Of a stretch of 64,000 nucleotides of DNA, positions 9,036-60,331 are shown piece by piece. The stretch's first letter is position 1; each line of letters begins with the position of its first letter. The position numbers were made by a program, and so were the translations under genes. The stretch covers positions 62,001 to 126,000 of the forward strand of contig PPNB01000006.1 of NCBI GenBank assembly GCA_003707115.1. The letters are read 5' to 3'. The DNA comes from Tortispora ganteri (taxonomy: Eukaryota). Below the pieces are notes generated by a model that saw nothing but the letters and a program-made list of their open reading frames with translations, searched no databases and was not told the origin of the DNA.

Positions 9036-11282
9036 ATGGCGCCAAAAAGCAAAACCGTTACAAAAAACACTAAACATAACGCGAAAAAGGAGTTGCGAGA
9101 AAAAGAGCTGAAGGTGCTTGCTGATCTCAAACAACGGGCAGCCGAGCTCGATGATACTTCTATTGAAAAGTTCAGTGATTTGCCAATATCTGAGCCAACG
9201 GCTTCGGGTCTTGCTAAGCAAGCGTTTACAGAAATGACTGAAATTCAAAGGAAATCAATCCCGTTAGCCTTGAAAGGCAGAGACATTCTCGGAGCTGCGA
9301 GAACGGGTTCTGGTAAAACTCTAGCATTTTTGATCCCACTTCTAGAGAAACTTGTGCACGAACAATGGACCCCAAATGATGGTCTAGGTGCACTGGTTAT
9401 CTCTCCAACGAGAGAATTGGCTGTACAAATATTCGATGTGCTTAGATCGATTGGCAAGTTTCACACGTTCTCTGCGGGCCTGGCAATCGGCGGAAAGAAC
9501 GTTCACGAAGAAATCTCAAGGGTGGGTCGTATGAACATCATGATTTGCACACCTGGAAGAATTCTGCAGTTACTAGATCAAGCTGTTGATTTTGATACTT
9601 CAAATCTTAAAATGCTTGTGCTAGATGAAGCAGATCGCATTTTGGACATGGGCTTCAAAGGTACAATGGATGCTATCTTAGAACATCTACCGAAAGATCG
9701 ACAAACTATGCTCTTCTCAGCTACACAGACGAAAAAACTATCAGATCTTGCTAGACTTAGCTTGAATGAACCTGAATATATATCCATTCACGATTCTACA
9801 GTGTATAGCATACCAGAATCTCTGATGCAACATTACATAGTTAGCCCGCTGCCTGACAAACTATCTATTCTTTACTCATTCTTGCGCACACATCTCAAAT
9901 CAAAAATAATTGTATTTTTCTCTTCCGGGAAGCAAGTGCGGTTCGCATTCGAGGCCTTTCGTCATATTCGTCCAGGTATACCGCTGGCACATTTACATGG
10001 CAGACAAAAGCAGACGACAAGAATAGAAACAGTCACCCAGTTCTCTAATGCAAAGTACTCCTGCCTTTTCGCTACTGATATCGTTGCTCGTGGACTCGAT
10101 TTCCCTTCTGTAGACTGGGTCATACAGGTCGACGCGCCTGAAGATGTGCCTACATATGTTCATCGAGTAGGCAGAACTGCTAGGTTTGACAAGGACGGTC
10201 ACGCTCTATTGTTTCTGACGCCAAGCGAGGAAACCCCCATGATAGAAAAACTTGAAGCAAAGAAAATACACGTCGAAAACCTCAAAATTCGCGAATCAAT
10301 GAAGCAGAGCATCAAAAAACAGCTACAAGGGCTCTGTTTTAAGGACACTGAAATCAAGTATCTGGCGCAGAAAGCATTCATCTCCTACGTTAGGTCAGTG
10401 TATCTGCAGCACGATAAAGACATTTTCAAATTCGACTCTATACCATTGGAAGAATACGCAGAAAGTCTTGGACTTCCTGGTGCGCCTAAAGTGAAGCTAC
10501 AAGGAGGTGCAAGTTTGAAGGAACGAAAGAATATTTCACGCCAACTTGCCCATGTAGCAGACGACGGAGAACAGAAGACGCAAGACGCTCCAAAGACAAA
10601 ATACGATAGAATGTTCAGCAGGGTTAACCAGGACATTCTGTCTGAGCACTACAACAAAGTAATTGAGCAAGAAGACCCGTCTGACAGTGAGGACATTCTA
10701 CAACCGAAAAATCAGAACAGCTACTTAGATAAAGAAGATTCTGAGCCGGCTAATATTGTCTCTAAACGGCAACTAAAGGCCGCCACCTCCAAGAAGCAGA
10801 TGTTAAAATACAAAGAAAGGCCTACAAAGCTGGTATTCGACGACGAAGGTAATGCCCATTCATTGTATGAGTTCCAGAAAGAGGAGGATTTTCTGAAAGA
10901 GGGCAAGCCAAAAGAACAAATTGACCGGTTCATCGAGGCAGAAAAGAAAGTCATGGATGATGCTGATTCTCAGGATAAAGAGATAGCGCGGGAGAAACGT
11001 TTAGCGAAGAAGAGGAAGAGAAGAGAAGCGGCTGAGAGCGCTAACAGATACGAAGAGGATGCGGAAGAAGAAGATGTCATTCCGTTTGAACAGGATGAAG
11101 ATCTGCTTGCAGAATTGAATAGGCAGATGGAGAGTTATGGAGAAGAGAAGAGAGAAAAGCGCGTCAAGATCGATTATCGTCGGAATAAGAATGAGCGTCA
11201 AAGTGCTAACGATAGCGACGCAGAGAGTTACAGCTCTTTGGAAGACCTTGAGGCGCTGACTGCGAAGCTGATCGAGGGCTAA
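9036..11282 (+). CDS. DBP4: DEAD-box RNA helicase Dbp4/Hca4 (DDX10), 40S biogenesis
   Basis: ARTGSGKTLAF, DEADRILDMGF, HRVGRTAR, KAFISYVRSVY...SLGLPGAP and KTKYDRMF. Confidence 0.95.
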   Translation: MAPKSKTVTKNTKHNAKKELREKELKVLADLKQRAAELDDTSIEKFSDLPISEPTASGLAKQAFTEMTEIQRKSIPLALKGRDILGAARTGSGKTLAFLIPLLEKLVHEQWTPNDGLGALVISPTRELAVQIFDVLRSIGKFHTFSAGLAIGGKNVHEEISRVGRMNIMICTPGRILQLLDQAVDFDTSNLKMLVLDEADRILDMGFKGTMDAILEHLPKDRQTMLFSATQTKKLSDLARLSLNEPEYISIHDSTVYSIPESLMQHYIVSPLPDKLSILYSFLRTHLKSKIIVFFSSGKQVRFAFEAFRHIRPGIPLAHLHGRQKQTTRIETVTQFSNAKYSCLFATDIVARGLDFPSVDWVIQVDAPEDVPTYVHRVGRTARFDKDGHALLFLTPSEETPMIEKLEAKKIHVENLKIRESMKQSIKKQLQGLCFKDTEIKYLAQKAFISYVRSVYLQHDKDIFKFDSIPLEEYAESLGLPGAPKVKLQGGASLKERKNISRQLAHVADDGEQKTQDAPKTKYDRMFSRVNQDILSEHYNKVIEQEDPSDSEDILQPKNQNSYLDKEDSEPANIVSKRQLKAATSKKQMLKYKERPTKLVFDDEGNAHSLYEFQKEEDFLKEGKPKEQIDRFIEAEKKVMDDADSQDKEIAREKRLAKKRKRREAAESANRYEEDAEEEDVIPFEQDEDLLAELNRQMESYGEEKREKRVKIDYRRNKNERQSANDSDAESYSSLEDLEALTAKLIEG

Positions 11283-16238: not shown

Positions 16239-16310
16239 CTTCGGTACCGGGAATCGAACCCGGATCTGCCCGGTGAAAGCGGACCGTGCTAGCCGTTACA
16301 CTATACCGAA
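16239..16310 (-). tRNA. tRNA-Glu (anticodon TTC), intronless
   Basis: Minus strand TTCGGTATAGTGTAACGGCTAGCACGGTCCGCTTTCACCGGGCAGATCCGGGTTCGATTCCCGGTACCGAAG: 7-bp acceptor stem, A box, CTTTCAC loop, GTTCGA B box, and a T-run terminator at ~16228-16233. Confidence 0.96.
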
Positions 16311-18512: not shown

Positions 18513-19587
<1,075 letters not shown>

Positions 19588-19724: not shown

Positions 19725-20792
19725 CTAAAACAGTGCGGAGACAAACGATCCGTACTGGTCACATCCTGCCATGTGGTATCTATCCTGAGCTTGACTCTGC
19801 AGATCAATGAGTGCTTTTCGTCGCTTCTCATCACTCGGATGTGTTTGTAAGAAGTCAAATTTGGGCGAACCAGCTAAGCCATACTGCCTCATAGCTTTCT
19901 CCATGCGCGACCAGAATTGTGGCGCGTCTGCGGGATTGTAGCAAGCGGACGACATCAGCATCAGGCCTATAGCGTCGGCCTCAGATTCCTGAGCTCTGCT
20001 AGACGGCAGTTCAAACAGTAGATTTTGCAGATTTGAAATACTGTTCGGAATTCCGGCAGAGATGGCCAGCAGCGAAATGAATAGGGAAACCGGTACTCTT
20101 GAGGTCTTCTCAGCGATATGTCTGGCCACAACGTGCGATATCTCATGTGAGAGCACTGTGGCGAGTCCCGCATCATTTTGGGCAATAGGCAGAATGGAAG
20201 TGAACACAAAAACGTGGCCGTTTGCAAGAACAAAGGCGTTCGGGGGATCATTCGAGTTGATAACGGTGACTTTCCAGTCGATGTTGCGCATGTGATCCGG
20301 CCACAGGTCTCGAGGTGGATTCTTCGTCAGTCTTCGCACTATTTCCTTTACTTTGCGCACTGTGGGGTGTCCGTCAGGTAATATATAGTTTCTGTATGAC
20401 CTAATTGTAGATCGTTCTGCGCTTCTGGCCAGATACATATCTAGCCAGGACGGCGCCAGTATCACCCTCAGGCGTTGAGTGACAGGTGCTCGGTCCAGAT
20501 TGGCCACTGCTATGATACCTACAAACCCTCCAACGTATGCGACCCATTTTAGTACAGCGCGGCTACAGAAGAATGCGATACGACGCTCATTAAGTGTATA
20601 GTATCTGTCCTCGCCGAAACGTCTGTACACCGATTGTCTCGCTGGTATAGATCTATGGAAGGTCCGCGCTCCGCTCGGGCCCGTTGCCTGCGCACAAGCG
20701 GTTAACCGCGTAGAACTCGCCAAAACAAAACAGCTGTTCGTGCGCAATGGTAAACCTGAAAAAAATATACGTGAACAGCGCTGGACGTTCAT
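19725..20792 (-). CDS. OMA1: Mitochondrial M48 metalloendopeptidase Oma1
   Basis: Arg/Ser-rich presequence, PNAFVLANG, HEISH zinc motif, QESEADAIG and FLQTHP. Confidence 0.92.
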   Translation of the reverse strand: MNVQRCSRIFFSGLPLRTNSCFVLASSTRLTACAQATGPSGARTFHRSIPARQSVYRRFGEDRYYTLNERRIAFFCSRAVLKWVAYVGGFVGIIAVANLDRAPVTQRLRVILAPSWLDMYLARSAERSTIRSYRNYILPDGHPTVRKVKEIVRRLTKNPPRDLWPDHMRNIDWKVTVINSNDPPNAFVLANGHVFVFTSILPIAQNDAGLATVLSHEISHVVARHIAEKTSRVPVSLFISLLAISAGIPNSISNLQNLLFELPSSRAQESEADAIGLMLMSSACYNPADAPQFWSRMEKAMRQYGLAGSPKFDFLQTHPSDEKRRKALIDLQSQAQDRYHMAGCDQYGSFVSALF

Positions 20793-34039: not shown

Positions 34040-35868
34040 ATGAAATACGTAGTAGTATCTGGAGGTAAGTAAACTATTGCTAAAGCACGACCGTAACGGC
34101 CTTGTGCACTTTTTTAGGCTGAGATATTTTATCTTTATACTTGGTACTAACTTGCCATTTAGGTGTCATTTCTGGTATTGGCAAAGGTGTTATTGCTTCT
34201 TCAACGGGTCTTCTACTTAAAACTTTAGGCTTACGTGTCACATCCATAAAGATAGATCCTTATGTGAATATAGATGCAGGAACGATGAGTCCTCTAGAAC
34301 ATGGCGAAGTTTTTGTTCTGGACGATGGCGGTGAAGTTGACCTAGATCTAGGAAACTATGAGCGTTATTTAAATGTATCATTGACGCGTGAAAATAACAT
34401 TACCACAGGTAAAATTTATTCCCGTGTCATCGAACGTGAACGCAAAGGAGACTACTTGGGTAAGACGGTTCAGGTAGTCCCTCATGTCACCGATACGATC
34501 CAGAATTGGATAGAAGAAGTGGCACATCATCCTGTAGATGATTCAGGATGTGAGCCAGATGTTTGTATAGTCGAATTAGGCGGAACCGTCGGTGACATAG
34601 AGTCAGCTCCGTTTGTCGAAGCTCTCAGACAGTTCCAATTTCGCGTTGGAAGAGAGAATTTTGCCCTGATTCACGTATCTCTTGTACCAACGATTTCTGG
34701 GGAGCAAAAGACAAAACCCACGCAGGCCGCTATTCGTGACCTCCGTAGTCTTGGTCTGTCTCCTGATATCATTGCATGTCGCTGCTCAGAAAAATTAGAG
34801 AAGCAAACTGTTGATAAACTTGCTATGTTTTGCCATGTCACACCTGATCAAGTGTTGGTGGTGCATGATTTACGTTCTATTTACTTGGTTCCCGTTCTTC
34901 TTGAAGAGCAGAAGCTCTTGAAGTCTCTTGATTTAAAGATTCAACTTAATACCATCATGCTTCCTCCTGAAAGAGCTCGCGCAGGTACTGATCTATGGTC
35001 AGAATGGAAATCTCTTACTGCTAGAGATAACCGCTCATTTGACAAGATAACCATTGCATTAGTAGGGAAATACACGCACCTCAAAGATTCTTACATCTCA
35101 GTGGTCAAGTCTCTCGAGCATTCAGCTATGCACGTTGGTCGCGTTCTGGAAATTGTTTGGGTTGAAGCTTCAGACCTTGAGGCTGAAACTTCCACTGCGG
35201 AAAAAGTTAAGTTTCATAAAGCGTGGCACGACGTTTGTTCTGCAGATGGTATCCTTGTTCCTGGCGGTTTCGGTACCCGAGGCACAGAAGGTATGATAGC
35301 AGCTGCTAAATGGGCTCGCGAAAACAACGTACCTTATTTAGGAATCTGTCTCGGCCTACAGCTGGCTGCTGTGGAATATTTGCGAAACGTTGCTGGCGTT
35401 ATAGATGCTTCCTCCGAAGAATTTGATCCGGAACTCAGCGGCAGTAATAAAGCTGTTGTGTTCATGCCAGAAGTCTCGAAAACTCATCTTGGAGGTACCA
35501 TGCGGCTTGGACTAAGATCAACCAAGTTTCAACCTAATACAGAGTGGAGCCGCATTCGCAAGCTTTACAATAATTCTGAAGAAATATTCGAGCGCCATCG
35601 TCATCGCTATGAAGTTAACCCTGATCTGGTACCTCTGTTGGAAGAAAAAGGTCTTCACTTCGTAGGCAAAGATGAATCTGGCATAAGAATGGAAATTCTT
35701 GAACTTAAGGACCATCCGTATTATGTCGCTACTCAGTTTCATCCTGAATACATTTCAAAAGTGTTAAATCCCTCTAAACCTTTCTTGGGTCTAGTTGCAG
35801 CAAGTGCCGGTATCTTGGATAATGTTATAGCTGAAATTGGACGAAAAGACGGTAAATCCTCTTTTTAA
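34040..35868 (+). CDS. URA7: CTP synthase; exons 34040-34064 and 34163-35868, intron 34065-34162
   Basis: Splicing GTAAGT...TACTAAC...TTTAG restores [17 protein letters not shown]. GATase motifs GICLG and QFHPE present. Confidence 0.97.
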
Positions 35869-39166: not shown

Positions 39167-40378
39167 ATGGACGAATATACCGTGAATAGCAATGAAGCCA
39201 TTACTATTTGTCTATCAGGCTTCGAAAAACATGATTTTAATCCAGATATGACTTACTCTGTTTTTGGAGAAAATGAAACAATATATGGTTATAAAGACTT
39301 GAAAATTAAGATAATGGTCGATGCTTCCACTTTTCTTATGTACCTAGATGTATCCTACTCGGACAAAAAACCCGATGCAATTGATATTGAGAACACGCTC
39401 TCTCATCTATTACCTGAAGATGCATACTCATCGGAAGAAGCATGGATGAAAGCTATACAGGATGAGAAACACAATATCCCTTACGGCACACTGATAAATT
39501 CAGGTGATACGATCGCAGTTTCTAGATTCCGGGCATACGACTATCCAGAACTTACTCGCAGACTTGAAACGTTTGTGCCGCTTTTTATTGAGGCAGGAAC
39601 AGTTATAGATACTCATGATAAACGATGGGAAGTATATTTGATGTATGCTCCTAACACTTACGATATCATAGGGTTTACAACAGTATATGACTGTTTTTAT
39701 TTTAACGCACAAGAATCAAACACTGTTCCAACAGAAGAGAAATCTTCAGCTGTGGAAGATATTATTGCCAGTTGTGTCAATATGCCTATGCTGGATGACG
39801 ATCCCTTGATCCTGAGTCGAAAAAGAATATCTCAGTTTCTTATTCTTCCTCCGTATCAACGAAGTGGAAATGGACGCACATTATATACAATAGTATTTGA
39901 TTCACTATTTTCAGATGGATCTGTAAGGGAAATTTGTGTTGAAGACCCTTCTGAGGCCTTTGATGATATGAGAGATGTCAGCGATTTAATCAGGCTGAGT
40001 CGTCCTCGAGGGACGTACCCACCATTATGGGAATCTGGGTTTTTTGATATGGCTGACCCTGCGGCAATTAAATCACAAGCAAAGACTGAAAAAATAGTCC
40101 TGCGGCAGTTCCAGAGATTAGTTGAAATGGCGCGTCTTAAGAATCTTAATTCAAAAAGTAAGGCAGAAAAGAAAGCACTTAGGATTGCTATCAAGAAGCG
40201 CTTGTTTTTACACAATAAAGAAGCTCTGAAAGATCTTGAGAGACCCGATCAAATGCAAAGATTAGATCAAGCCTATGACTCCGTCATTGAGCATTACAAA
40301 GAGATCTTAAATACGGTTAAAAGACTTGATAAACCTAGGTCTAGTGCCGATCAATCGCGCAAAAAGCAGAAATCATAG
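39167..40378 (+). CDS. HAT1: Histone acetyltransferase type B catalytic subunit
   Basis: FGENETIYGYKDL, LFIEAG, RISQFLILPPYQRSGNG and VEDPSEAFDDMRD. Confidence 0.94.
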   Translation: MDEYTVNSNEAITICLSGFEKHDFNPDMTYSVFGENETIYGYKDLKIKIMVDASTFLMYLDVSYSDKKPDAIDIENTLSHLLPEDAYSSEEAWMKAIQDEKHNIPYGTLINSGDTIAVSRFRAYDYPELTRRLETFVPLFIEAGTVIDTHDKRWEVYLMYAPNTYDIIGFTTVYDCFYFNAQESNTVPTEEKSSAVEDIIASCVNMPMLDDDPLILSRKRISQFLILPPYQRSGNGRTLYTIVFDSLFSDGSVREICVEDPSEAFDDMRDVSDLIRLSRPRGTYPPLWESGFFDMADPAAIKSQAKTEKIVLRQFQRLVEMARLKNLNSKSKAEKKALRIAIKKRLFLHNKEALKDLERPDQMQRLDQAYDSVIEHYKEILNTVKRLDKPRSSADQSRKKQKS

Positions 40379-40428: not shown

Positions 40429-41175
40429 CTATGCCTTATATTTTCGGTCTTTCTGGTTATAGTAATCCACATACTCTTGTAAGTATCGAGGTATCGGAAT
40501 CTGATTCTCTACGTACGATGCAGAAACAGGTTCACCGAATGTTTGATTCAAAGGCACATTGCCTACCCAAATTGTACCCAGAGTACTCGGATCATAATTA
40601 GCTGACTTTTCGTTGCCTTGTCCTGTCCTTGCCTTGTACGTTCCTGATGCCACTTTCACCTTAATTATCGAAGTAGTAGCAATTTCAGCGGGTAGTGGAG
40701 GACCATTACAGTTTTCCCATCGATCTGGAACAATCGAGTTTGTAATTAATTTCATGGCATAAAGTTTTTCTTCTTCGTCAGTTACTAAAGTAGCATCACC
40801 ATGAATTACAGCAGACCTGTAGTTCATACTATGAGAGAATGGAGTAGATGTTAGCACTAATGCATCTACTATATGTCCTGAAAGGCAAATAGGTATGCCT
40901 TCATCTCCTGCTTCACGAAGAAGGTTAGCTAGGTGAAAGGAGACATAACCATGTACATACGCATCCAATGGCTCATCAAACTCCGACGAAGGATTCTCAA
41001 ATGACCCCATTGCAGCTATCATCGGTATACACACAGGTCTGTTGTCAACGACGAAAGATACTGTAACTGAAGGTAGTTCGTGAATAAGGCGTTGAATCGG
41101 CTCTAACTCATATACATCTCTGTTAAGCCCTCTAGTAGGTGTGTTGAGCTTTGTTTTAGGAAATTTTAGATTCAT
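40429..41175 (-). CDS. Flavin-nucleotide-binding protein (pyridoxamine-5'-phosphate-oxidase-like / NimA family)
   Basis: PVCIPM, YVHG, VDALVL...FSHSMNYRSAVIHG, EEKLYAM..I...VPDRW and KARTG. Confidence 0.82.
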   Translation of the reverse strand: MNLKFPKTKLNTPTRGLNRDVYELEPIQRLIHELPSVTVSFVVDNRPVCIPMIAAMGSFENPSSEFDEPLDAYVHGYVSFHLANLLREAGDEGIPICLSGHIVDALVLTSTPFSHSMNYRSAVIHGDATLVTDEEEKLYAMKLITNSIVPDRWENCNGPPLPAEIATTSIIKVKVASGTYKARTGQGNEKSANYDPSTLGTIWVGNVPLNQTFGEPVSASYVENQIPIPRYLQEYVDYYNQKDRKYKA

Positions 41176-42241
41176 TAGATAATGTAATATCAGTGTTTCC
41201 CAGTCTGAAAAGTAAAATGGGCTGTCTATATGTACTCCTACTATCCGATAACGCGCTTACCCCACATGAAACTACCGCTGATAGCGCGCGCCCCGTTACG
41301 CAATGTCCATATCTCCCATATATATCCTCCTCCTCTCATTGGTTGATTATCAGTAAAAATAGGTTTCCGATACGATGAGTCATTATTGGCTTAAACTAAT
41401 CAGTTATCCCAACACACCTGCAGATGTTAAGACAAACTGACTTCTATAAACCTGTCGAATTCTTTTTAGCAATAAGGGTAAATAATTAGTTGTCTAAGGT
41501 TTATGCTTACTTCTCAGCAGATACCTGAAAACAAACAGTTAGTTCCATCGACTTGCACCTTGGAAAAAAGGTCAGGTCGGATTCTTCAACAGGTTTGTCT
41601 TCCTGACTCATTGATATGGGGTTGTATAATCAGTTGAGCTACTTGGAAATCGATCTAATTCAATGAAAAATACCAAGCGCATTATGGAGATGCTTCTTTC
41701 TAAATGCCGCTGAGCAGGAGCTTGCTTACCTATTGGTTTAACACGTCCTTAATCGATGCACCAAGTGCCCATCTCAGCGCCACACATAACATTTGTAACT
41801 CATACTAATTGAACTAATGATGACCCTTAATATGCTCCTATAATTAAAAAAAAATGATGTGTACCGAATACTTAAATAAGTTTCATATAGTCTTGTGCCA
41901 AACACCGTAAAAAAGCCGTAGTTATACAAATCTAACAAAACGCCAATCAACGGATGCCTACAATATCCATTTGTTCAGTGGACCGAAGAAAAAATCTTGC
42001 TTACTTTACCGTCAGTAACAATCACTGGTTGAGATTGTATCTAGCACTAAAACATGGTAAAATAATCAAATTGTTGCAGGTAAATTGCCTTACCACGTGC
42101 ATGAATCACCGCAATATCAGTGAAGTCATGTGGCGTGTGCAAAAGTATACAATCTCATATAGCTCAATAATCTCTAATCAACGCTGGAAGGTTTACCATA
42201 TTTATATCCATCATTTTACTTATTGAGCTTTCATAATGTCC

Positions 42242-42594
42242 TTCCGATAATCAAAGAGCGCCACTTTGTATACGCAAATCTGTTTCACAATAGTAGCCAT
42301 GTTCATGAAAATTATAGTACGCCACATAGAAATTACATTTAGACGAATTTCCCTGATATTCCCAGTCATACTATTAATAATTACTTGGCCAGACATTACT
42401 TGCTTTTTTTCCTTATAAGGGCAATATAATACACATGCATACACTGAATTCTTAACAGCCCATAATAATGCTAGTTAACAAACCGCCACACTTTTACTAT
42501 AATTTGCCACCATTGCTTACTACCGCCCTGTTGTTGCTAGACATAGTCTATTTTTATTTAGCCGTTACACTAATAACATCCATGGCTCAATAAA
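42242..42594 (+). repeat. Diverged direct repeat, copy 1 (~355 bp)
   Basis: Collinear blocks shared with 42711-43064: AGCGCCAC, TAGCCAT..CATGAAAAT, AATTACA.TTAGACGA, ACATTACTTGCT, GCATACACTGAA, ACCGCCAC, CCATTGCTT, TTATTTAGCCG and ATGGCTCAAT. Confidence 0.9.
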
Positions 42595-42710
42595 ATTTTA
42601 TAATGATTGAGCTATTTTTTTAATGATTTTACTCGAAAGCTTTAGAATAGTCATTGAATGCGTGCATGGTTTTAATCTACCGCTATGAACTGTGCTATTA
42701 TTTTATTTTC

Positions 42711-43064
42711 CTCCAATTATCAAAAAGCGCCACCTTATATACAAAAAGTCCGATTAATAATGATAGCCATCTCCATGAAAATCTGAACGGTGCACATAGG
42801 AATTACAGTTAGACGATTCTCTCTGAATTCTCAGTCTCCATACTATCAGAGAAATTACCGGACGAAACATTACTTGCTCTGCTCCTTATATGAACATTAG
42901 AATACACGCGCATACACTGAAGCCCTAGGTCAACGGTAATAATAATAAAATTATCTACCGCCACTTGAGTACTAGATTTGGCCATTGCTTGCTACCCGAT
43001 TTTCGCTAGGAATACAAGACCCTTATTTAGCCGGTACACGAATAGCATCTATGGCTCAATGAAA
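42711..43064 (+). repeat. Diverged direct repeat, copy 2 (offset ~469 bp)
   Basis: Same ordered blocks as copy 1, with substitutions and small indels. Confidence 0.9.
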
Positions 43065-43404
43065 GCCAAAATAAGTTGTATATACTATAAAATCATTTCT
43101 TAGAACACGAATAATACTATCTATCTCCAGGGACGTGTTGATTATGACGGTCGATCATATGGTTTTGTGCAAAGAAATCGCTAAACCATGTTTAAGAGGG
43201 AGGATTCCCCCGCAGCTAATTTAAACCAAAACAACCCCCCCAGCACCTGCCCTATCGCAACTATCAAACCTCATTCCGTCTATGAATTATACAAATTTGT
43301 TTCTGAGATGAAATCTGCTCTTTTTTCAAGTTCTAGTATCTCCCTATAGTAATTGTTACATATAGCGGAGCAAATTTAGTTGTCCTGTAAAAGACTGCAC
43401 GCGC

Positions 43405-43441
43405 TTATTATTAATTATTAATATTATTATTATTAATATTA
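43405..43441. repeat. Pure A/T low-complexity (TAT/ATT)-type tract
   Basis: ttattattaattattaatattattattattaatatta read directly. Confidence 0.8.
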
Positions 43442-46400
43442 GTATTACTGGAAATAAAATACGCTATTTCTACTAATGCTACATTGTAATGTAACAGCGT
43501 CTACTTTGGCGCTATAACGATTTTCTGGACCTTGCTTATGAGTTTTATTTTCGGTTATTGGTTCTTTGCCGCTAGTCATCTGAGTTAATTGATGCAACAT
43601 AAAAACAAATATACCCGCTAAGCGGCATACCTGTTATATTGTCGACGCCATAATAATATTAATATGGCACTCTGAAATATACATTCTATGGGAATGTGTT
43701 ATTATTATGGCAGAAGCTTATATTTCACTATACAGTAGTGAGAAGCTATGGACCAAACTGATCTAAGCTGTTCACTGCTTTGATCTAAATCCAGATAAGC
43801 TTTATATTTTCTACATAAACTATAGAGAATATGTATTCAATGGGTTTATATGAAACTTCGCAGGAGAATCATTAAGAATTATCTCATATAGCAGCATTCA
43901 CTTCTCTCTGGAAAGAACCTTAATAGCTAGTTCGACAGTTTCCGTTTAGCTTATTATACAGCCTGCACTATATGACGTTTACTAGATCTCGATCCAGATA
44001 GCTAATAGCCTACTAGTGAGGACAAACTCTCGATACTAGCGTACTTTTCAGTGCTTTATCTACAAGCGACTTAAGTGGCGTACTAAAATTTATTTAATCA
44101 CAAATATCAGGCCTAGATGTTGTTCTGGTCAAAACTTTTATACTACTTATCCGCAACATTTGCCACTTCATTACCAGTATAAAAAATTATCATTTGCCAA
44201 CCACATAGCGTTGATGAGACTCATAGTAGATTTTCTTAAGTCTGATGCCAGTTTTATTAAACTACATGCACTTTCCGCGGTAAAAAAAAATCTGGAGTAT
44301 TCCATTAGATTGTGGAGATCTGCTTCCCTCGGATCATGGAGAAAACAACTAGCGTCCAGTGCATTCTACACTCATCAAGGGGTGCTGTTCCGTAGTTTCG
44401 GTGAGTACGCAGGCATCGTGGCGATACCTAATTTCATTAGGATTATACTCTAAAATGAAGTAATGTCCATACTTCACCGAAATCTTGAATCATGCATAAC
44501 GTTGATGTGAAGTGTTAAAAGCTCATAAAAACTGTAGTCTTCATTCTCTTCCATCGCAACCCGAGCATAGCCTAATAAATTTTCACTGCGAACATGTTTA
44601 AACTACTATTAATCAAAAAGTAACATAAAGGCACTCTACATTATTAATTCATAATAGAGTAGACATTCTCTCAATGTACTCTTGGCTACTTCCACTGGCT
44701 TCTTTCCATGCTGTCCGTAAACCCCACTTGACTAGCGAAGAATACCAAAATGAAAGCCATCTATCCCCTTTGAAACACGATACAAGGACCCCTCCGGCTT
44801 GTCTAGTTAATTACTTGCATTTGAGCAGGTCGATCCCACCGCAAGCTGACGAATAAGTTGCAGGAAAATGGTAATAAATCCACGATAATTAATGAGCTTC
44901 ATTATGCAATGGTGTCATTTTATAATATCGCTCTTTTTAATATACGTATTCCACGTCTATAAAGTGGCCTCGTTAGTCTTATCGAATTTCAATATAATCT
45001 ACATCGGAAATATAACCCTTAAAGAAACTATGACAGGCAATTCTAGAAAGGACGTTACTTTAATGACTGTTCACAGCTTTTTTTCTCGTTGAAGTTATAG
45101 GTAGGAACGAGTACTTCTCTATAACTCAATCTGAATATAGAAAAAATCCTAGTAGACTAGGGCAAAAAATATATGAGTTTCTTATTCTTATAGCACGCCG
45201 ATCTTAAGTATTATATTAAACCATAGGACGCCACATGAAACCCAAACTATCACAAAATCGCCCATTTATAAATATATGTTAATTATTTAACCACAATAAA
45301 TAGAACTCCACTTTCTACAGCTAATTCCTGCCACTCGCCATTATAATTTGCTGTATTCACTATGACCCTTTCGTAATATAATTCAATTTATCTTGCGTTG
45401 GAAAAAGCCAATCTAACGGGGAACTAATATATATCATGTAGGGAAGCATAATTACGCCTTGTTATCATTTTTCGCATGGAGACAAGCAACTGACAACATC
45501 TGCGATATACTGAAATAGCTCTACATACTCTACCTTTTTTCTCTTCTCAAACAAATTATGTAAGACTTCTTTCAGGTTTCAATAAAACACCCTGCCAATA
45601 CAGTAGATATTCCGAGTAATTCTCTGAATTATGAACTCACAGCTTTAACCATATGAACCTCTGAGCGCTAACAGAAACTAAAAAATTGTTGTCAAAGTTA
45701 TTATGCTATTTTATTCATACCGGTCACTATGTGGCGTATCCGCATATCCTCTCAATAGTTGGGACAAAGCACCCACCTGTTATATTGTGAAACTGACGAA
45801 GCGAACGACCAAAACAATCATAAACCGCAACTTGCAGTTATTATACTATAATATAATTAAAATTTGTGATCTATGATAATATCCCAATCCGCATAATCAA
45901 ACATCAATTTCAATAATGAAACGCTAGAAGATTTCCTGAGCTAACTAAAATGTTACTTCGTTGATAGTGGCAACAGGCTATCAGAACCTAGCATAGTGAT
46001 ATGGCGGCAGGCTGTGGTCGTGTGGCGTAGTGAGATTGCTCCGAAATGCTGATAAACAGAGTGTTAGAAGTGGCAAGTAGCAACCTCAGCGGTATTGCAG
46101 TGTTCGATGCCCTTGCGGAGTTATAAGCATCATATAGTGAAGTTTTGCTATTTTTACATATGAATTTGATTCAATTCCGGGAAGTATGAGAGAATACGCA
46201 CAATTAGTGAAAGAGGCCTTCTAGAACCCGACGTGATTAGGAAAAAGAAAAGTAAATGGAACACAAGCATAACATGTTCACTCAAAGCCAAGGTCATTAG
46301 GGAAGAATATATGACAATGTTATATACTTTTGTTTCTACAAATGACCTGCTAGATTCAGCATTCAGTGAAACTGACTGATTACCAAATCTTTTCAACAAT

Positions 46401-47313
46401 AGAATAATTATCGAGCTTGGTAACAATACTATTCGACGTTTGAAAGCGTGGATGCGTGGATGAAACTTCGCCTATGACTGCAGTATCGACTATAAGACTC
46501 TAAATCTCGAGTGACTCACTAGTGTGTACATGGCGAACTATGAGTATTTCACAGGGAGTCTAAGCATGGCTATTGTAGCCTAATTCTTTTTAATAACTCG
46601 GTTGATTGATCCAATTTATGACCATGTTCGTTCGCTGAACAATGCTTTTCAAGTTTGGCAGAAAAGATGCTCCGGACCTTTGCTTAACGGACTTGGCAAC
46701 GTGTATTCCATGGGCTGTTCCAGTAGATAATGCAGTGCAGCACGCAATTATTGATTCCTTTACTCAGGACTGTCTTTAAATCGCTCATCGTAAGTGCTCG
46801 TAACATATTGAATTCAATAATCTACTACTGTATTACCAGCAGCAGGTCCTTTAGTTATGTGTTGTCCATCCTGTAGAGTATTTCTACTAGCAAAAACCTT
46901 CAGGTATTTCGCCACTGAATGGATTCCAAAGTTGTGACGCCTCTTTCGCCACAGTAGTGTGACATGTGGCAAACCACGGACTGGACACCCAGATAGTTAT
47001 ATAGTCCACGTTTGCGATAGGAGTGTGGCGAATGGCAAAGCAATGGCAAGATTCACAGTATTGTACTTTCAACTATAGATAGCGCTGAACATTCAGGACG
47101 TAAGAATGCGTTCCAGAAGGTCAAAGAATCGTATAGAATGCATCATTTACTCAGTCTAGTTCTGATACAATGTACTCCCGATTACAACCTGGAAGATTCA
47201 TTTTTTGTGTGAAAACAATGTATGTTGCTCTGAGTAGATTACGGCATACGCAATACATTAGACCATTATGACCAGATACAGACATGTAGCTGATTAAAAT
47301 GCTTTCCTGTTTC

Positions 47314-48093
47314 CTAAGGAAGATCAACACTTGCCGTTAGCCTACGCGCGTTTTGGAGTAAGCGTACTATCAGCGGACAATCACTAACAATTTTCATAGG
47401 CCCGGTAGTCCAATGTATCGATTGTCTTCTTTCGCATTCACTGATACCAGTGTTTTGCCACGTATTAATATGGGTTGAAGGCGTATGCGGCGCAGCGCGT
47501 TGGTACGGACTCGCGCCTTTTTTCATTAAGTAAGCGACTATGGCGTATCAAAAGAAACTCCAGTAACTAGAGAATAAATTCCTACTTCGTTGGTGATGCT
47601 CTCTAACGCTATTATGATCTTCCAAGAAGGGTGTTCGTGGTCTCACCTTCATTGATTTCATCTCATGCAACATCACCATTTCGGACTCCTCACAAAGTCC
47701 GTATTCACGAGCAATATCATACTTGATATATGCTTTTGACAGGTCCAGCCATTTATGGCCAGACTGATCAATAAACTCTTCTGGAAACGTCCTAAGATAA
47801 TTTTTGTTTTCGATGTTCTCAGTTGGCTGAGATCTCCCGGATACGATAAATAATCGTGGTTCAGTAGGGGGAGATGAAGTAGTACATTTAGAGCGCGCTG
47901 CCTTCGAAAAGTCATTGACAGCATGGCTGTTGCTGATGTCGCATGAAATATTATATTCAAATACGACTAAGGCTGTACGACAATTAAATCTCCTTTGCAT
48001 TTTACGGTGAGGTATGCCAGCATCCCTAGAGTTAGAACATATAGAGGAGTAAGTTTGCTTTTGTATATCTTCCTCCATTAATACTAGTTGCAC
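47314..48093 (-). pseudogene. Possible decayed ORF: a single ~260-codon frame with one internal TGA
   Basis: Track ORFs 47548-48093 and 47314-47526 share a frame and are separated only by TGA at 47548-47550. No recognisable motif. Confidence 0.3.
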
Positions 48094-49223
48094 GTAGTGT
48101 CGCCAGTATCTTTATTCCGAGTCTGGCTGCTCACCTTATAGTAATTTGAAAGTACCTTGCAGTGGCACAATACGAAACTTTGATAATAGTCGGACAGAAG
48201 AGACTCTTTCCTTTTCAGCGACAATCTTCTAAGCTACTATTAGAGGGATCTTCAGTAAGAGACCATATGTACTGGTAAAAGTGAACAGGCTGCTGCTAAC
48301 CCTAAAATTGCTATTCAACGGTCTCTTGAATGTCCGAGTATTCTGATACTTAGAGGGAGCTCATCACTTAATATCAGTTTATCTAATTGTCCCGATTTCT
48401 TTTAAGTAATAGATCCTTAGATCTACTCATAAGGCAATCTGCTAGTTAGAAAACACCGGAATAATTTTCGAATCATTTGTTTAGTCCTTGGCACTACCAG
48501 ATAAAGAGCTTAATGACCAGCCCCTTTGCTGGAGCCGTCTCTCCGAACTCCTGCATGGGTTCGCAGAGTTAATGGGTTCATCACCACGGCAGAAACCGAT
48601 GAGGAATGAGTCGCGTAGATTGTCTGACCCACCGGCGTACTGTGGACTTAATCCGTAATAATGGTGTGAGTCACTGAGCACATCGAACACCCCAGTCATA
48701 GCTGTTTTACCTTATAAGCGGTTCTTAACTGTTAGAAGAGTGATATGCCTAGTGTACTAAGGAACGATGTCATCAATTCACAATAGATAGCATCTGTCTA
48801 TGTCTCGGGTGCAACTGCGAGCTGGCACTATACCGTGTGTGATAAATTTTTATGAGAAAATAACTTACTATGCATGCTAGCAATTTATTTATAAGGGCTA
48901 GTGCCCTTTATTCGGTGCATGACGCTCTATGTGAGCCATGAGAAGTGCTACACGTTCTATAAATTATTAACGCATTGCTGCGTGCGCTAAGTGCAATAGG
49001 TACATATAATACAAAGTGCCTTAATCTTAACTGAAGTTTAGTACAAAGCGAATGGTCGCGTCATCTAACCGGATTAATGTGCTTCCTTCGAACTTTTTCT
49101 CCTTCTTAGCAACGGTCCAGCCAGTAAAGAATTACTCATCATCAAACAAAGTAACACTGAACAGCATTTAATTGAATTCGCTGCCAAGAATATACATTTT
49201 ATGTTAAATTTCTAAGCTATTGA

Positions 49224-50276
49224 ATGTTGAAGGCAGTTTTTATATCTAGACACTGTTCTAGAATTGATGCGGAAGATCCTACGTGGAAGGATACAGCTGT
49301 TACACCGTACGATCCGCCCCTTAGCGCTCGTGGTTTTAGTGAGGCTAAAGAGCTAGGAATAAGAGTGAAGCAGGCAATGCATGACTGCGGTGGATCAAAA
49401 CTCAACATACATAGCTCTCCATTTCTCAGATGCATTCAAACTGCTAGTGAAATTGCTAAAGTTGTTGACAATGTGGAATTAAGTATTGACTGCAGCTTAG
49501 GTGAATGGATCACGTCAGACTATTTTACTCATATAACGCCTCCTCCCGAAGATAATCATAGATCTATAGTTGAAACTGCACATCGATACTTGAATAATTC
49601 TACTACACCCGGTGTTAATAACAGAGATGCGTGGAAGTTTGGTAAAGGGGGAGAATACGATGAAGAGTGGTCAGAGATGAATGAACGAGCTCGCAAAGCC
49701 TTGGGATGTATTATAGAAGAGACTCGAATGCGAACTATTAAGCAAGAATCAGCTGATGGGAAAATATTAAGTGATGAGGTGATTTTAATAGTTTCGCATG
49801 GCGCAATCTGTAATTCGCTTATTGGTGGATTAAGTAACAGACCTACGCTGATCAACATTTCTGTAGGATCGTTGTCAATAGCATTGCCGCTCGAAGAAAA
49901 GCCTGCGGTGGACTCTACGTCACAAAGTCTTATTGACCGTATTGGTCACTGGAAGCTGTCTCAGATTGGTGATATGCGCCGGACTAGCAAAAGTGAGAGT
50001 TCTGACGAAGAGGATGTTGCATTGTGGAATTCATCTCCGAGAGAAATGTCAACTGCAAGATCGATACTGTCGCGATCCGGCTCTATTATCACTGATTTTA
50101 ATCATATAAGGTCTAGATCTCGGAGTAAAAGCCGACTACATATGTTGGTTAATGAGGGCACCAAAACGCAGTCTGGGTCTTTGTGGAAACCTCAAGAAGA
50201 TCTCTCAAACAAGTCGGAAGCCACGGGTGAGTTTAGTGAACCAAAGATATGGAACGAGAGCCAAAAACTGGAATAA
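49224..50276 (+). CDS. Histidine phosphatase / phosphoglycerate mutase family protein
   Basis: RHxxR (RHCSR), TPYDPPLS..G, HSSPFLRCIQTA, LGEW and LIVSHG. Confidence 0.85.
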   Translation: MLKAVFISRHCSRIDAEDPTWKDTAVTPYDPPLSARGFSEAKELGIRVKQAMHDCGGSKLNIHSSPFLRCIQTASEIAKVVDNVELSIDCSLGEWITSDYFTHITPPPEDNHRSIVETAHRYLNNSTTPGVNNRDAWKFGKGGEYDEEWSEMNERARKALGCIIEETRMRTIKQESADGKILSDEVILIVSHGAICNSLIGGLSNRPTLINISVGSLSIALPLEEKPAVDSTSQSLIDRIGHWKLSQIGDMRRTSKSESSDEEDVALWNSSPREMSTARSILSRSGSIITDFNHIRSRSRSKSRLHMLVNEGTKTQSGSLWKPQEDLSNKSEATGEFSEPKIWNESQKLE

Positions 50277-59134: not shown

Positions 59135-60331
59135 ATGGTTCCTCCTGTTTATATCGTTTCTTACGCTAGAACTCCTATTGGAAGATTTATGGGCCAACTG
59201 GCCCCGCTTTCGGCTACAGATTTAGGAGGTATTGCTGCCAAAGCTGCTCTTGAAAAAGTGCCTCAGATCCCCTTAGGTGACATCGATGAAGTGATTTTTG
59301 GTAATGTTATGTCGGCAAATGTCGGTCAAGCACCTGCTCGTCAGATTGCCCGTAAAGCCGGACTTCCAGACTCTGTACCTGCAACTACCCTTAATAAAGT
59401 GTGTGCTTCTGGAATGAAAGCTGCTATTGTAGGTGCGCAGTCTATTATCTGTGGCTCTGATATTGTCCTTGTTGGTGGCGCCGAATCTATGACAAATGTC
59501 CCATATTACTCTCCCTCTACTCGCTCTGGGGCTCGTTTTGGTGGCACTACACTAGTAGATGGCCTTGATGATGGTCTTCAAGACGCTTACGACAAAGTAG
59601 CTATGGGTGTCTTCGCAGAAGAAACCGCAGCTGAGTACAAAATCACCCGGGAACAGCAGGATGATTTCTCAATTCGTTCCTTCAAACGAGCACAAGCTGC
59701 ATATGCCAATAAGAAACTTGAGTACGAAATTACTCCGGTAATTGTCCCTGGGCGCAAGCCGACTACCGTCACAGTTGACGAGAATCTCTCTAGACTCGAT
59801 GAAGAGAAGCTGAGAGCTGCAAGACCTGCTTTTAGCAAAGACCCCAATGCTACTGTAACTGCTCCGAACTCTTCTGCATTAAATGACGGTGCTGCTGCTC
59901 TTGTTCTGGTCTCAGAGCGTAAACTTAAAGAGCTCAATCTGACCCCTATCGCTCAGATTATCGGCTGGGGTGATGCTGAACAACGTCCTCAGCGCTTTAC
60001 TACCGCCCCATCTTTGGCTGTTCCCAAGGCTATCAAACATGCTGGTCTCACTCCTAGCGATATCAGTTTCTACGAACTTAATGAGGCTTTTGCTGTTGTT
60101 GGACTGGCTAATTGTCAAATCATGAATCTCAAGCCTGAACAGGTTAATGTTTATGGTGGTGCTGTCGCTATTGGACACCCTCTCGGTTGCTCAGGTGCAC
60201 GTATCATTTGTACGCTTGCCTCTGTTCTTACTAATGAAGGTGGAAAGTATGGCGTTGCTGGTGTATGTAACGGCGGAGGTGGTGCTTCTGCCATAGTTAT
60301 TGAGCGTATCAGGCAAAGTGGACGTCTTTAA
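59135..60331 (+). CDS. ERG10: Acetyl-CoA C-acetyltransferase (thiolase II)
   Basis: VYIVSYARTPIG, NKVCASG, NEAF, GHPLGCSGAR and CNGGGG. First ATG at 59135. Confidence 0.94.
   Translation: MVPPVYIVSYARTPIGRFMGQLAPLSATDLGGIAAKAALEKVPQIPLGDIDEVIFGNVMSANVGQAPARQIARKAGLPDSVPATTLNKVCASGMKAAIVGAQSIICGSDIVLVGGAESMTNVPYYSPSTRSGARFGGTTLVDGLDDGLQDAYDKVAMGVFAEETAAEYKITREQQDDFSIRSFKRAQAAYANKKLEYEITPVIVPGRKPTTVTVDENLSRLDEEKLRAARPAFSKDPNATVTAPNSSALNDGAAALVLVSERKLKELNLTPIAQIIGWGDAEQRPQRFTTAPSLAVPKAIKHAGLTPSDISFYELNEAFAVVGLANCQIMNLKPEQVNVYGGAVAIGHPLGCSGARIICTLASVLTNEGGKYGVAGVCNGGGGASAIVIERIRQSGRL

Follow-up and report, generated by a model that had tools for sequence, protein, structure and literature searches.

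The question raised by this locus is what an 8-kb stretch without recognisable genes is doing in a small and tightly packed yeast genome, the contigs of which sum to about 9.5 million letters. The window, i.e. the whole 64-kb stretch of Tortispora ganteri DNA submitted to analysis, carries 34 genes separated by short spacers. Two divergently transcribed genes leave between them an interval of 8,048 bp (41176-49223), referred to below as the gap, while the second-largest intergenic interval of the window measures 1,289 bp; the statement of the original prediction that this is the only multi-kb gap present is confirmed. Among the 41 ATG-initiated ORFs of at least 100 aa found in the window, a single one lies inside the gap, on its right side, and with the caveat of this orphan ORF of 176 aa the gap is an unusually large ORF-free interval of unique sequence. 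A regional centromere, small in size and of unique sequence, appears to be the best single explanation, and this candidate can be given a probability of roughly 45%. The features discussed below are collected in Table 1.

Table 1. Coordinates of the gap, of its inner elements and of the neighbouring genes, given as positions in the 64-kb window.
Feature	Position	Strand	Remarks
HAT1 orthologue, two genes to the left of the gap	39167..40378	+	88% identity to T. caseinolytica ODV92373.1
Left flanking gene, Pyridox_ox_2 family	40429..41175	-	Points away from the gap; GC3 0.317, lowest of the window
Gap, whole interval	41176..49223	.	8,048 bp; unique, single-copy; without recognised gene or RNA
Lower-GC core, candidate centromere core	~41800..46000 (4.2 kb)	.	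GC 0.358; 300-bp GC 0.32-0.40
Degenerate tandem duplication, two units ~470 bp apart (42243-42595, 42712-43064)	42243..43064	+	71% identity over 365 nt
(TTA)n microsatellite	43405..43447	.	
Hairpin, perfect 12-bp arms (43647-43658 / 43700-43711)	43647..43711	.	Local fold z-score -3.5
137-codon open frame	44040..44450	+	Codon score ~0; without genuine homologue; 4 SNPs, one 3-bp indel
Orphan open frame, 187 codons stop-to-stop	47317..48111	-	ATG ORF 47548-48078, 176 aa; 77 further in-frame codons past one TGA
CTAACCCTAA, 1.67 units complementary to TTAGGG	48296..48305	+	Found once in the window; weak candidate for a telomerase-RNA template
Right flanking gene, histidine phosphatase family	49224..50276	+	Points away from the gap; 91% identity to T. 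caseinolytica ODV92375.1

The gap is single-copy and correctly assembled. Contigs derived from the public runs X1 and X2 are collinear with the window over 36-55 kb, display no joints and an even depth of about 80, and are interrupted solely at a small allelic bubble. Two alleles are present in these runs over 43465-43584, next to the (TTA)n microsatellite. Over the 19 kb compared with the same runs, 35 SNPs and 6 indels were found, of which 31 SNPs and 4 indels fall in the gap, 16 of these SNPs and 3 of these indels being located in the core (41800-46000). The SNP density of the gap, 3.85/kb, is to be compared with 0.22/kb in flanking coding DNA (P=9e-9) and 1.14/kb in flanking intergenic DNA (P=0.049); for SNPs and indels taken together, the density of variants in the gap does not differ significantly from that of the flanking intergenic DNA (P=0.15).

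The gap was searched for genes and RNAs by several means. One tRNA is found in the whole window, at 16239-16310 and thus outside the gap; beyond it, Rfam returned nothing in the window at gathering score, and zero matches at E<=1 over 40800-49600. None of the 57 open frames of at least 45 aa in the gap reaches the Pfam cut-off, and none of its six whole reading frames, with stop codons read as X, contains a Pfam family at E<=0.1. Relics of reverse transcriptase, integrase or gag are absent from all six frames. The 72 open frames of at least 40 codons located in the gap all have a codon score of 0.163 per codon or less, and 24 of the 34 genes of the window score 0.2 or more. The window contains 27 intron-like motif sets; 4 of them lie in the gap, for a length-proportional expectation of about 3.4. 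Sliding RNA folds gave mean z-scores of -0.12 (102 windows) and -0.30 (60 windows); just 11 windows display z < -2.5 and, as these are mostly found on both strands, they point to small hairpins rather than to an RNA gene. The absence of any recognisable gene or tRNA claimed by the original prediction therefore holds for the tRNA, Rfam and Pfam searches and has to be qualified for the 176-aa ORF, which is longer than expected by chance. A mitochondrial insertion was also considered and rejected: no mitochondrial or other domain is seen when stops are read through, and the lengthening of the frames under genetic codes 3 and 4 (to 265, 171 and 142 codons) is expected upon removal of one stop codon.

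The base composition of the gap agrees in part with its initial description as AT-rich. At 0.380 (38.0%), the GC content of the whole gap equals that of the other intergenic DNA (0.383, or 38.3%), and the modest AT-richness that stands is that of the core at about 41.8-46.0 kb. Windows of 1 kb over 41-46 kb have GC values of 0.343-0.388 against 0.420 for the window, and the run of such windows below 0.39 extends over 5.7 kb at the gap and over at most 2.2 kb elsewhere in the window, some ordinary spacers of which are equally low (0.346-0.361). The segment at 46.0-49.2 kb has an ordinary GC of 0.409. Since these right 3 kb combine a normal GC with a non-random orphan ORF, the candidate core should be limited to about 4-5 kb rather than 8 kb. 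The core also displays a sustained excess of C over G on the plus strand, with a skew of -0.145 to -0.147.

The flanking genes, which had been described as AT-richer at third positions, do belong to a measurable zone of low GC3, which spans no less than 37 kb at about 0.32-0.34, compared with 0.44 farther to the left. According to gene position, GC3 is 0.40-0.53 at 1-24 kb, 0.32-0.37 at 27-41 kb and 0.33-0.43 at 49-63.6 kb. The lowest five-gene GC3s mean of the window (0.313-0.316) is found at the left edge of the gap. To the right of the gap, GC3s drops with distance (Spearman -0.80), to a renewed low of 0.325 where the window ends. As the zone continues up to that end, its centring on the gap cannot be shown and, given this rightward fall, the bottom of the trough may lie outside the window; according to PMC2997560, the troughs published for yeast centromeres extend over 100-300 kb.

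The proposal of a regional centromere can be retained on account of the largest gap, its unique DNA, the lack of detected genes, the pattern in the sister species described below and the GC3 minimum at its edge, and has to be toned down as regards AT-richness, GC3 centring and the extent of 8 kb. The centromere of the chromosome would correspond to the lower-GC core at about 41.8-46.0 kb, and perhaps to more of the 8-kb interval. Its identity would be set epigenetically, through Cse4/CENP-A nucleosomes and not through a DNA motif, and it would be devoid of inverted repeats and of a retrotransposon cluster. A kinetochore would then assemble on this Cse4-occupied DNA, with one such site per chromosome. 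Suppression of recombination around the centromere would generate the wide low-GC3 zone of the neighbouring genes, and the centromere DNA itself would be free to evolve, a lack of constraint with which the high SNP density of the gap agrees.

The gap can be compared in turn with the known types of yeast centromeres. In Candida (Clavispora) lusitaniae, candidates of 3.2-5.8 kb were chosen by taking, within the trough, the longest intergenic region (Lynch et al. 2010, PMC2997560). The gap is likewise the largest intergenic region, with a 4.2-kb core in 8 kb, and lies among the lowest-GC3 genes without motif or repeat; the same heuristic predicted the centromeres in that species. One deep trough per chromosome is described genome-wide in C. 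lusitaniae (about 40% against peaks of 70%), whereas the GC3 drop reported here is shallower (0.44 to 0.32), concerns a single 64-kb window and is not established as centred on the gap. The C. lusitaniae centromeres have reportedly been mapped by Cse4 at a later date. The gap also resembles the centromeres of Candida albicans, which are described as 3-5 kb of unique and fast-evolving DNA located in an ORF-free gap and deprived of any conserved motif (PMC5499181). It differs from these in that C. albicans centromeres are reported not to lie in GC-poor troughs (PMC2997560), in that Cse4 binding is proven there and predicted for the gap, and in that the two yeasts belong to different orders.

Extensive gene-free DNA within a GC-poor trough is equally reported for the Ty5-like retrotransposon-cluster centromeres of Debaryomyces hansenii, Scheffersomyces stipitis and Ogataea (PMC2997560, PMC13017519). 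In contrast to these, the gap contains no cluster of LTR or retroelement fragments: none of its 6 frames holds a retroelement relic or a Pfam family, a family of LTR-like repeats was not detected, and the k-mer depth (about 80) matches single-copy DNA, with the reservation that very old and diverged LTR relics could escape a single-locus search. A gap of several kb between genes is further described for the inverted-repeat centromeres of Komagataella phaffii, Candida tropicalis and some Barnettozyma (PMC12711049). The T. ganteri gap differs from these by the absence of kb-scale inverted repeats around it. The longest inverted repeat detected over 38-52 kb is of 31 nt at 77% complementarity, and comparison of the gap to the window by self-BLAST yielded no inverted match and one internal duplication at 42243-43064, the only repeat that the gap has in this window.

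In point centromeres, a very AT-rich CDEII of about 80 bp lies between CDEI and CDEIII. A search of the window for a CDEI-spacer-CDEIII-like pattern produced a single match, within a gene (20044-20150) and with a GC-rich spacer, and none in the gap. Both exclusions made by the original prediction, i.e. of the Komagataella type for want of a long flanking inverted repeat and of the point type for want of a CDEI-II-III layout, are therefore borne out. Yarrowia lipolytica belongs to the Dipodascales, the nearest order with cloned centromeres; its centromeres are described at the bottom of GC3 troughs, in an early-branching yeast which also lacks classical heterochromatin (PMC2997560). Those centromeres were defined by plasmid function, whereas the gap is a candidate picked from its sequence. 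The centromeres of Y. lipolytica are short, and the gap is much larger.

The surroundings of the gap can be followed in the sister species T. caseinolytica, to which the flanking proteins are 88-91% identical, a similarity that places the window in a Tortispora-like yeast of the order Trigonopsidales. ODV92373.1 (HAT1) and ODV92375.1 (right flank) share one T. caseinolytica contig of 3,117,240 bp and their numbers are two apart. Such numbering leaves room for one annotated protein, so that no gene would be annotated in the equivalent interval, assuming that accession numbers follow map order; the deduction is drawn from protein accessions. It suggests that the interval is gene-free in T. caseinolytica too. 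A metagenome scan using the right-flank protein as a query found no relative.

The first alternative is that of a functionless spacer left after gene decay. One or several lineage-specific genes would have died, and their DNA, not yet deleted, would be drifting towards an AT-rich and highly polymorphic neutral state. The two longest open frames of the gap (187 and 137 codons) would be accounted for as possible remains of dead genes, frames this long having arisen in 3 of 1000 simulations in each case; the continuation of the longer frame past its single TGA and the occurrence of 2 of the 3 SNPs of the 176-aa ORF at codon position 2 go in the same direction. The gap also has the GC of ordinary intergenic DNA and a variant density at the level of unconstrained DNA, and the strand skew of the core could mark an old transcription unit. 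However, no domain relic appears in any frame when stops are read through, and both long frames lack a homologue. The gene-free state is apparently common to T. caseinolytica, whose flanking proteins are just 88-91% identical; any gene death would therefore be old, and yet 8 kb survive in a very compact genome. A frame interrupted by one stop cannot be as old as this shared state implies, and decay leaves the low-GC3 zone around the gap unexplained. Decay is considered an unlikely origin of the gap.

Taken by itself, the frame at 47317-48111 could be an orphan gene, a proto-gene or a young pseudogene. Its 176-aa ORF has a codon score of 0.054 per codon and an ESM recognition score of 1499, compared with the 2300 reached by most real families, and a homologue search with this ORF found none. 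The two matches of the 137-codon frame in a representative library (E 3e-32 and 4e-4) were rejected as artefacts, being long perfect tandem-repeat proteins without any single matching stretch.

The second alternative, which fares worse and is held to be distinctly improbable, is that the gap harbours one or more noncoding RNA genes or an unusually long regulatory region, for example a telomerase RNA at about 48.3 kb, with CTAACCCTAA as its template, or a long transcript running through the core. The one-sided GC skew of the core would fit long-term transcription in one direction. The single CTAACCCTAA of the window falls inside the gap and was matched in 5 of 100 whole-window shuffles. It lies in a segment poor in SNPs (48163-49172, 1 SNP in 1,010 bp against about 3.9/kb across the gap) and is followed downstream by a set made of a 5' splice site, a branch point and an AG (48666-48786). 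A template-like motif in a gene-free stretch of at least 1 kb is reminiscent of fungal telomerase RNA genes, from which the locus differs by the emptiness of Rfam at E<=1 and the want of a structural signal, 200-nt folds over 48.2-49.1 kb having z-scores of -1.8 to +1.1. The core structure expected of a telomerase RNA (pseudoknot, three-way junction, Sm site or 3'-end signal) is not indicated by Rfam or by these fold scores. A telomerase-RNA template should comprise 1.3 or more units complementary to the telomere repeat of the species, and TTAGGG may not be the repeat of Tortispora, the only telomere repeat reported for the family in the supplement of PMC7857110 being a putative TTAGCGAGGTG in Trigonopsis vinaria. 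Five motif variants were tried and the CTAACCCTAA match is not significant after correction; the motif doubles as a branch-point-like GCTAAC, and an RNA of 1-2 kb would be too small for an 8-kb gap.

Missed protein-coding genes, either fast-evolving orphans or genes with many small exons, are more improbable still: the 176-aa ORF has a non-random length, a review (PMC5499181) portrays T. caseinolytica as comparatively rich in introns and introns exist in genes of the window (the CTP synthase ORF begins at position 49 of its Pfam profile and the ARF ORF at position 15, and intron-like signals immediately precede them at 34065-34162 and 18561-19089), but Pfam is empty in every frame of the gap, codon scores are low throughout, the 176-aa ORF is neither matched by a homologue nor recognised by ESM at the level of real families, three 1-bp indels between strains fall in the gap, intron-like signals are no commoner there than elsewhere, and the equivalent T. 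caseinolytica interval, judging from accession order, has no annotated protein.

The structure of centromeres is already known from mapping in many orders of budding yeasts. The Trigonopsidales branch between the heterochromatin-bearing Lipomycetales and the remaining budding yeasts. A full-text literature search returned no description of a centromere for Tortispora, Trigonopsis or their order and family, and the order goes unmentioned in the searchable text of some recent centromere-evolution papers. The path inferred in PMC13017519 leads from heterochromatin-based repeat centromeres to Ty5-cluster centromeres and then to point centromeres. Should the gap be a centromere, centromeres resembling those of C. 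albicans would be placed close to the root of the budding-yeast tree, shortly after the loss of classical heterochromatin and well before the proposed Ty5-cluster stage, and a unique-sequence centromere would provide a new data point at the Trigonopsidales node. It is tentatively proposed, with a little less assurance than the centromere reading itself, that the gap would be the first centromere located in the Trigonopsidales and of the unique-sequence, repeat-free, transposon-free and epigenetic kind. A confirmed centromere would also make a well-defined locus to probe by Cse4 ChIP or Hi-C in a genome of 9-10 Mb; if the gap is just a decaying spacer, the finding becomes an ordinary one.

A minor observation concerns the position of the HAT1 orthologue. 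By the systematic naming rule, YPL001W is the first ORF left of CEN16 in S. cerevisiae. This ORF is given as HAT1 in a table of PMC8619191, and according to PMC12711049 three yeast orders share conserved centromere positions. The text and text supplements of the latter, where gene names sit in figures, make no mention of HAT1, and CIT3, DEG1 and LOC1 are likewise unnamed in its text supplements. The observation was made post hoc, and the chance of such a coincidence is about 2% (~4 genes x 32 centromere-adjacent genes / ~5,500 genes). The HAT1-CEN16 synteny lends weak support to a centromere and may be due to chance; that it would reflect a centromere that has stayed in place since the lineage shared an ancestor with S. 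cerevisiae seems very unlikely. A similar idea, based on SPB4, a CEN6-adjacent gene in S. cerevisiae, was dropped as the helicase encoded at 9036-11282 matches HAS1/DDX18/DDX10 far better than SPB4 (1e-113 vs 4e-60).

A single multi-kilobase gap is present in the window, as the original prediction held: 8,048 bp (41176-49223) against 1,289 bp for the next largest intergenic interval. The remaining genes of the window are ordinary housekeeping genes. Contigs of two public DNA runs of one organism (X1 and X2) span 36-55 kb collinearly and free of joints. Their k-mer depth stays even at about 80, which rules out an assembly artefact and leaves no multi-copy repeat anywhere in the gap. Ninety percent of the gap's sampled words are present in these runs. 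Their contig sets sum to about 9.5 million letters, and we take the genome of this Tortispora-like yeast to be of ~9.5 Mb. A unique 8-kb interval in so compact a genome is unlikely to be accidental. Since CTG is common among leucine-family codons (for instance 17/83 in the first gene of the window), a CUG-Ser code looks unlikely here.

Judged from the sequence, the best single explanation of the gap would be a candidate small regional centromere centred on its lower-GC core (probability about 0.45). This reading is favoured because no gene, RNA or transposon is detectable in the gap, because the corresponding interval of Tortispora caseinolytica is apparently gene-free too and because the genes of lowest GC3 in the window adjoin the gap. 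Different readings can apply to separate parts of the gap simultaneously, and some of the probability falls to none of those considered here.

The AT-rich core expected from the first inspection was recovered at about 41.8-46.0 kb only, where GC is 0.358 (0.32-0.40 in 300-bp windows), whereas the entire gap (0.380) is on a par with other intergenic DNA (0.383); the 46.0-49.2 kb part reaches 0.409. The longest low-GC run of the window, 5.7 kb, is the one at this core, as compared to at most 2.2 kb elsewhere. On the plus strand, C exceeds G with a skew of -0.145 across 41.2-46.0 kb, ending sharply at 46.0 kb; the coding strands of the 34 genes, pooled, show a far weaker skew (+0.027). The lower GC3 anticipated for the flanking genes was confirmed, with 0.32-0.37 at 27-41 kb and 0.33-0.43 at 49-63.6 kb versus 0.40-0.53 at 1-24 kb, and the two 5-gene windows touching the gap display the lowest GC3s means (0.313 and 0.316). 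On the right side GC3s climbs to 0.36, then drops to 0.325 at the end of the window (Spearman -0.80 with distance, falling away from the gap). Lynch et al. (PMC2997560) describe yeast centromere troughs 100-300 kb wide, the candidate being the largest intergenic region of the lowest 15-gene window, of 3.2-5.8 kb in C. lusitaniae. The pattern around the gap fits this picture as far as a 64-kb window reaches, and the bottom of the trough may lie outside it.

The HAT1-family protein encoded second to the left of the gap (39167-40378) is 88% identical to that of T. caseinolytica NRRL Y-17796 (next best 35-39%) and the right-flank protein 91% (next match 36%). Both orthologues, ODV92373.1 and ODV92375.1, are located on one 3,117,240-bp contig. 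If GenBank numbers track map order, a single protein would lie between them, presumably that of the Pyridox_ox_2 gene, which would leave the corresponding interval devoid of annotated genes. Tortispora is placed in the order Trigonopsidales, in line with the family heading in PMC6692504. Full-text literature searches turned up no description of a centromere for either Tortispora or Trigonopsis; if confirmed, the gap would be a centromere of known type in an order not sampled before.

The strongest alternative, a decaying spacer, is less likely. The variation between the window and X1/X2 would be expected of a centromere as much as of plain spacer. The tables of X1 and X2 are near-identical, perhaps one data set filed twice, and were counted as a single comparison. 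Over 19 kb aligned, 35 SNP rows and 6 indels were obtained, of which 31 SNPs and 4 indels in the gap. Per kb, SNPs number 3.85 in the gap, as compared to 0.22 in the coding DNA on its flanks (P=9e-9) and 1.14 in the intergenic DNA there (2 in 1,762 bp, P=0.049); with SNPs and indels pooled, gap and flanking intergenic DNA do not differ (P=0.15). These rates indicate that the gap is under no constraint and may evolve a little faster than the DNA around it. Two alleles occur in X1/X2 at 43465-43584, with depths of 34.5 and 45.3; one matches the window exactly, its counterpart differs by 3 SNPs. This site adjoins the (TTA)n microsatellite. Further contig breaks at 40543, 47845-47875 and 49121 may be variable sites too. 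The tandem duplication in the low-GC core is old, with a better kept 42-nt block (~90%; 42554-42595 / 43023-43064).

Features located in the gap and upstream of two other genes (window numbering)
Feature	Position	Strand	Remarks
Degenerate tandem duplication, unit ~470 bp	42243-42595 vs 42712-43064		71% identity over 365 nt; sole repeat found in gap
(TTA)n microsatellite	43405-43447
Hairpin, 12-bp arms	43647-43711
Second long frame, 137 codons	44040-44450		codon score ~0; 4 SNPs and a 3-bp indel
Orphan frame, 187 codons stop-to-stop	47551-48111	-	ATG ORF 176 aa; with extension 47317-48111
CTAACCCTAA	48296-48305	+	single occurrence in window; SNP-poor stretch
Likely 5' intron	18561-19089		GTACGT...TACTAAC...AG, just upstream of ARF ORF
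Likely 5' intron	34065-34162		GTAAGT...TACTAAC...AG, just upstream of CTP-synthase ORF

A noncoding RNA or regulatory region is a rather improbable reading. Both flanking genes, of the Pyridox_ox_2 (left, minus strand) and histidine phosphatase (right, plus strand) families, are transcribed away from the gap, which therefore carries two promoters. At gathering score, Rfam yielded nothing in the whole window beyond the tRNA at 16239-16310, and no match at E<=1 within 40800-49600. Within the gap, the local fold signal peaks in the orphan ORF, at 47600-47900, where 200-nt windows of either strand give z of -3.4 to -4.2 and a 301-nt fold gives -2.6. As a candidate telomerase-RNA template, CTAACCCTAA is a weak lead: it is the complement of 1.67 units of TTAGGG, which may not be the telomere repeat of Tortispora itself, and 5/100 shuffles of the window gave a match to the motif, one of five repeat variants tried. 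The only telomere repeat reported for the family is the putative TTAGCGAGGTG of Trigonopsis vinaria (PMC7857110, supplement). Local folds around CTAACCCTAA revealed no structure, and the motif can also be read as a branch-point-like GCTAAC. Even if true, a telomerase RNA would account for ~1 kb at the right edge of the gap, not for the core.

Missed genes are very unlikely to explain the gap. The absence of recognisable genes and tRNAs claimed at the outset stands for tRNAs (the sole one of the window lies elsewhere) and for Rfam and Pfam families, and is qualified by one 176-aa orphan ORF, the only one in the gap among the 41 ATG-ORFs of at least 100 aa in the window. None of 57 open frames of at least 45 aa reached the Pfam cut-off (six weak matches, E 0.023-0.23), nor did the six whole gap frames, with stops read as X, match any family at E<=0.1; this lack of domain relics speaks against a cluster of retrotransposons, an inserted piece of mitochondrial DNA or a pseudogene that can still be recognised. 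The 72 gap open frames of at least 40 codons all score at most 0.163 per codon, as compared to at least 0.2 for 24/34 genes of the window, on which the codon model was itself trained. Intron-like signal sets are no denser in the gap than elsewhere (4 wholly inside and 1 across the left edge, of 27 in the window). Two frames are longer than chance would give: of 1000 locally matched Markov simulations, 3 produced a longest frame of at least 187 codons, and 3 a second-longest of at least 137 codons. The 187-codon frame is followed, after one TGA, by 77 further codons in the same frame. It has no Pfam family, no homologue among the proteins of 102-328 aa compared, a codon score of 0.054 and a low ESM recognition score; two of the 3 SNPs in its ORF fall at codon position 2. 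It may be an orphan gene, a proto-gene or a young pseudogene. The sole library matches of the 137-codon frame were tandem-repeat artefacts.

By the systematic naming rule, YPL001W is the first ORF left of CEN16. YPL001W is HAT1 of S. cerevisiae (PMC8619191, table), and Hession et al. (PMC12711049) report conserved centromere positions over Saccharomycetales, Saccharomycodales and Phaffomycetales, ~208 Myr; they do not cover Trigonopsidales, and HAT1 is absent from their text and text supplements. As a curiosity, HAT1 beside the gap may reflect chance or a very old centromere-linked synteny. At 59135-60331, the thiolase gene is possibly ERG10 (YPL028W), which lies on the S. cerevisiae arm that carries HAT1. 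SPB4 was discarded as a second synteny candidate, the helicase at 9036-11282 being HAS1/DDX10-like. Pfam matches of the ARF and CTP-synthase ORFs begin at profile positions 15 and 49, respectively. Given the likely 5' introns upstream of both, some of the larger 'intergenic' gaps of the window would therefore contain first exons and introns.
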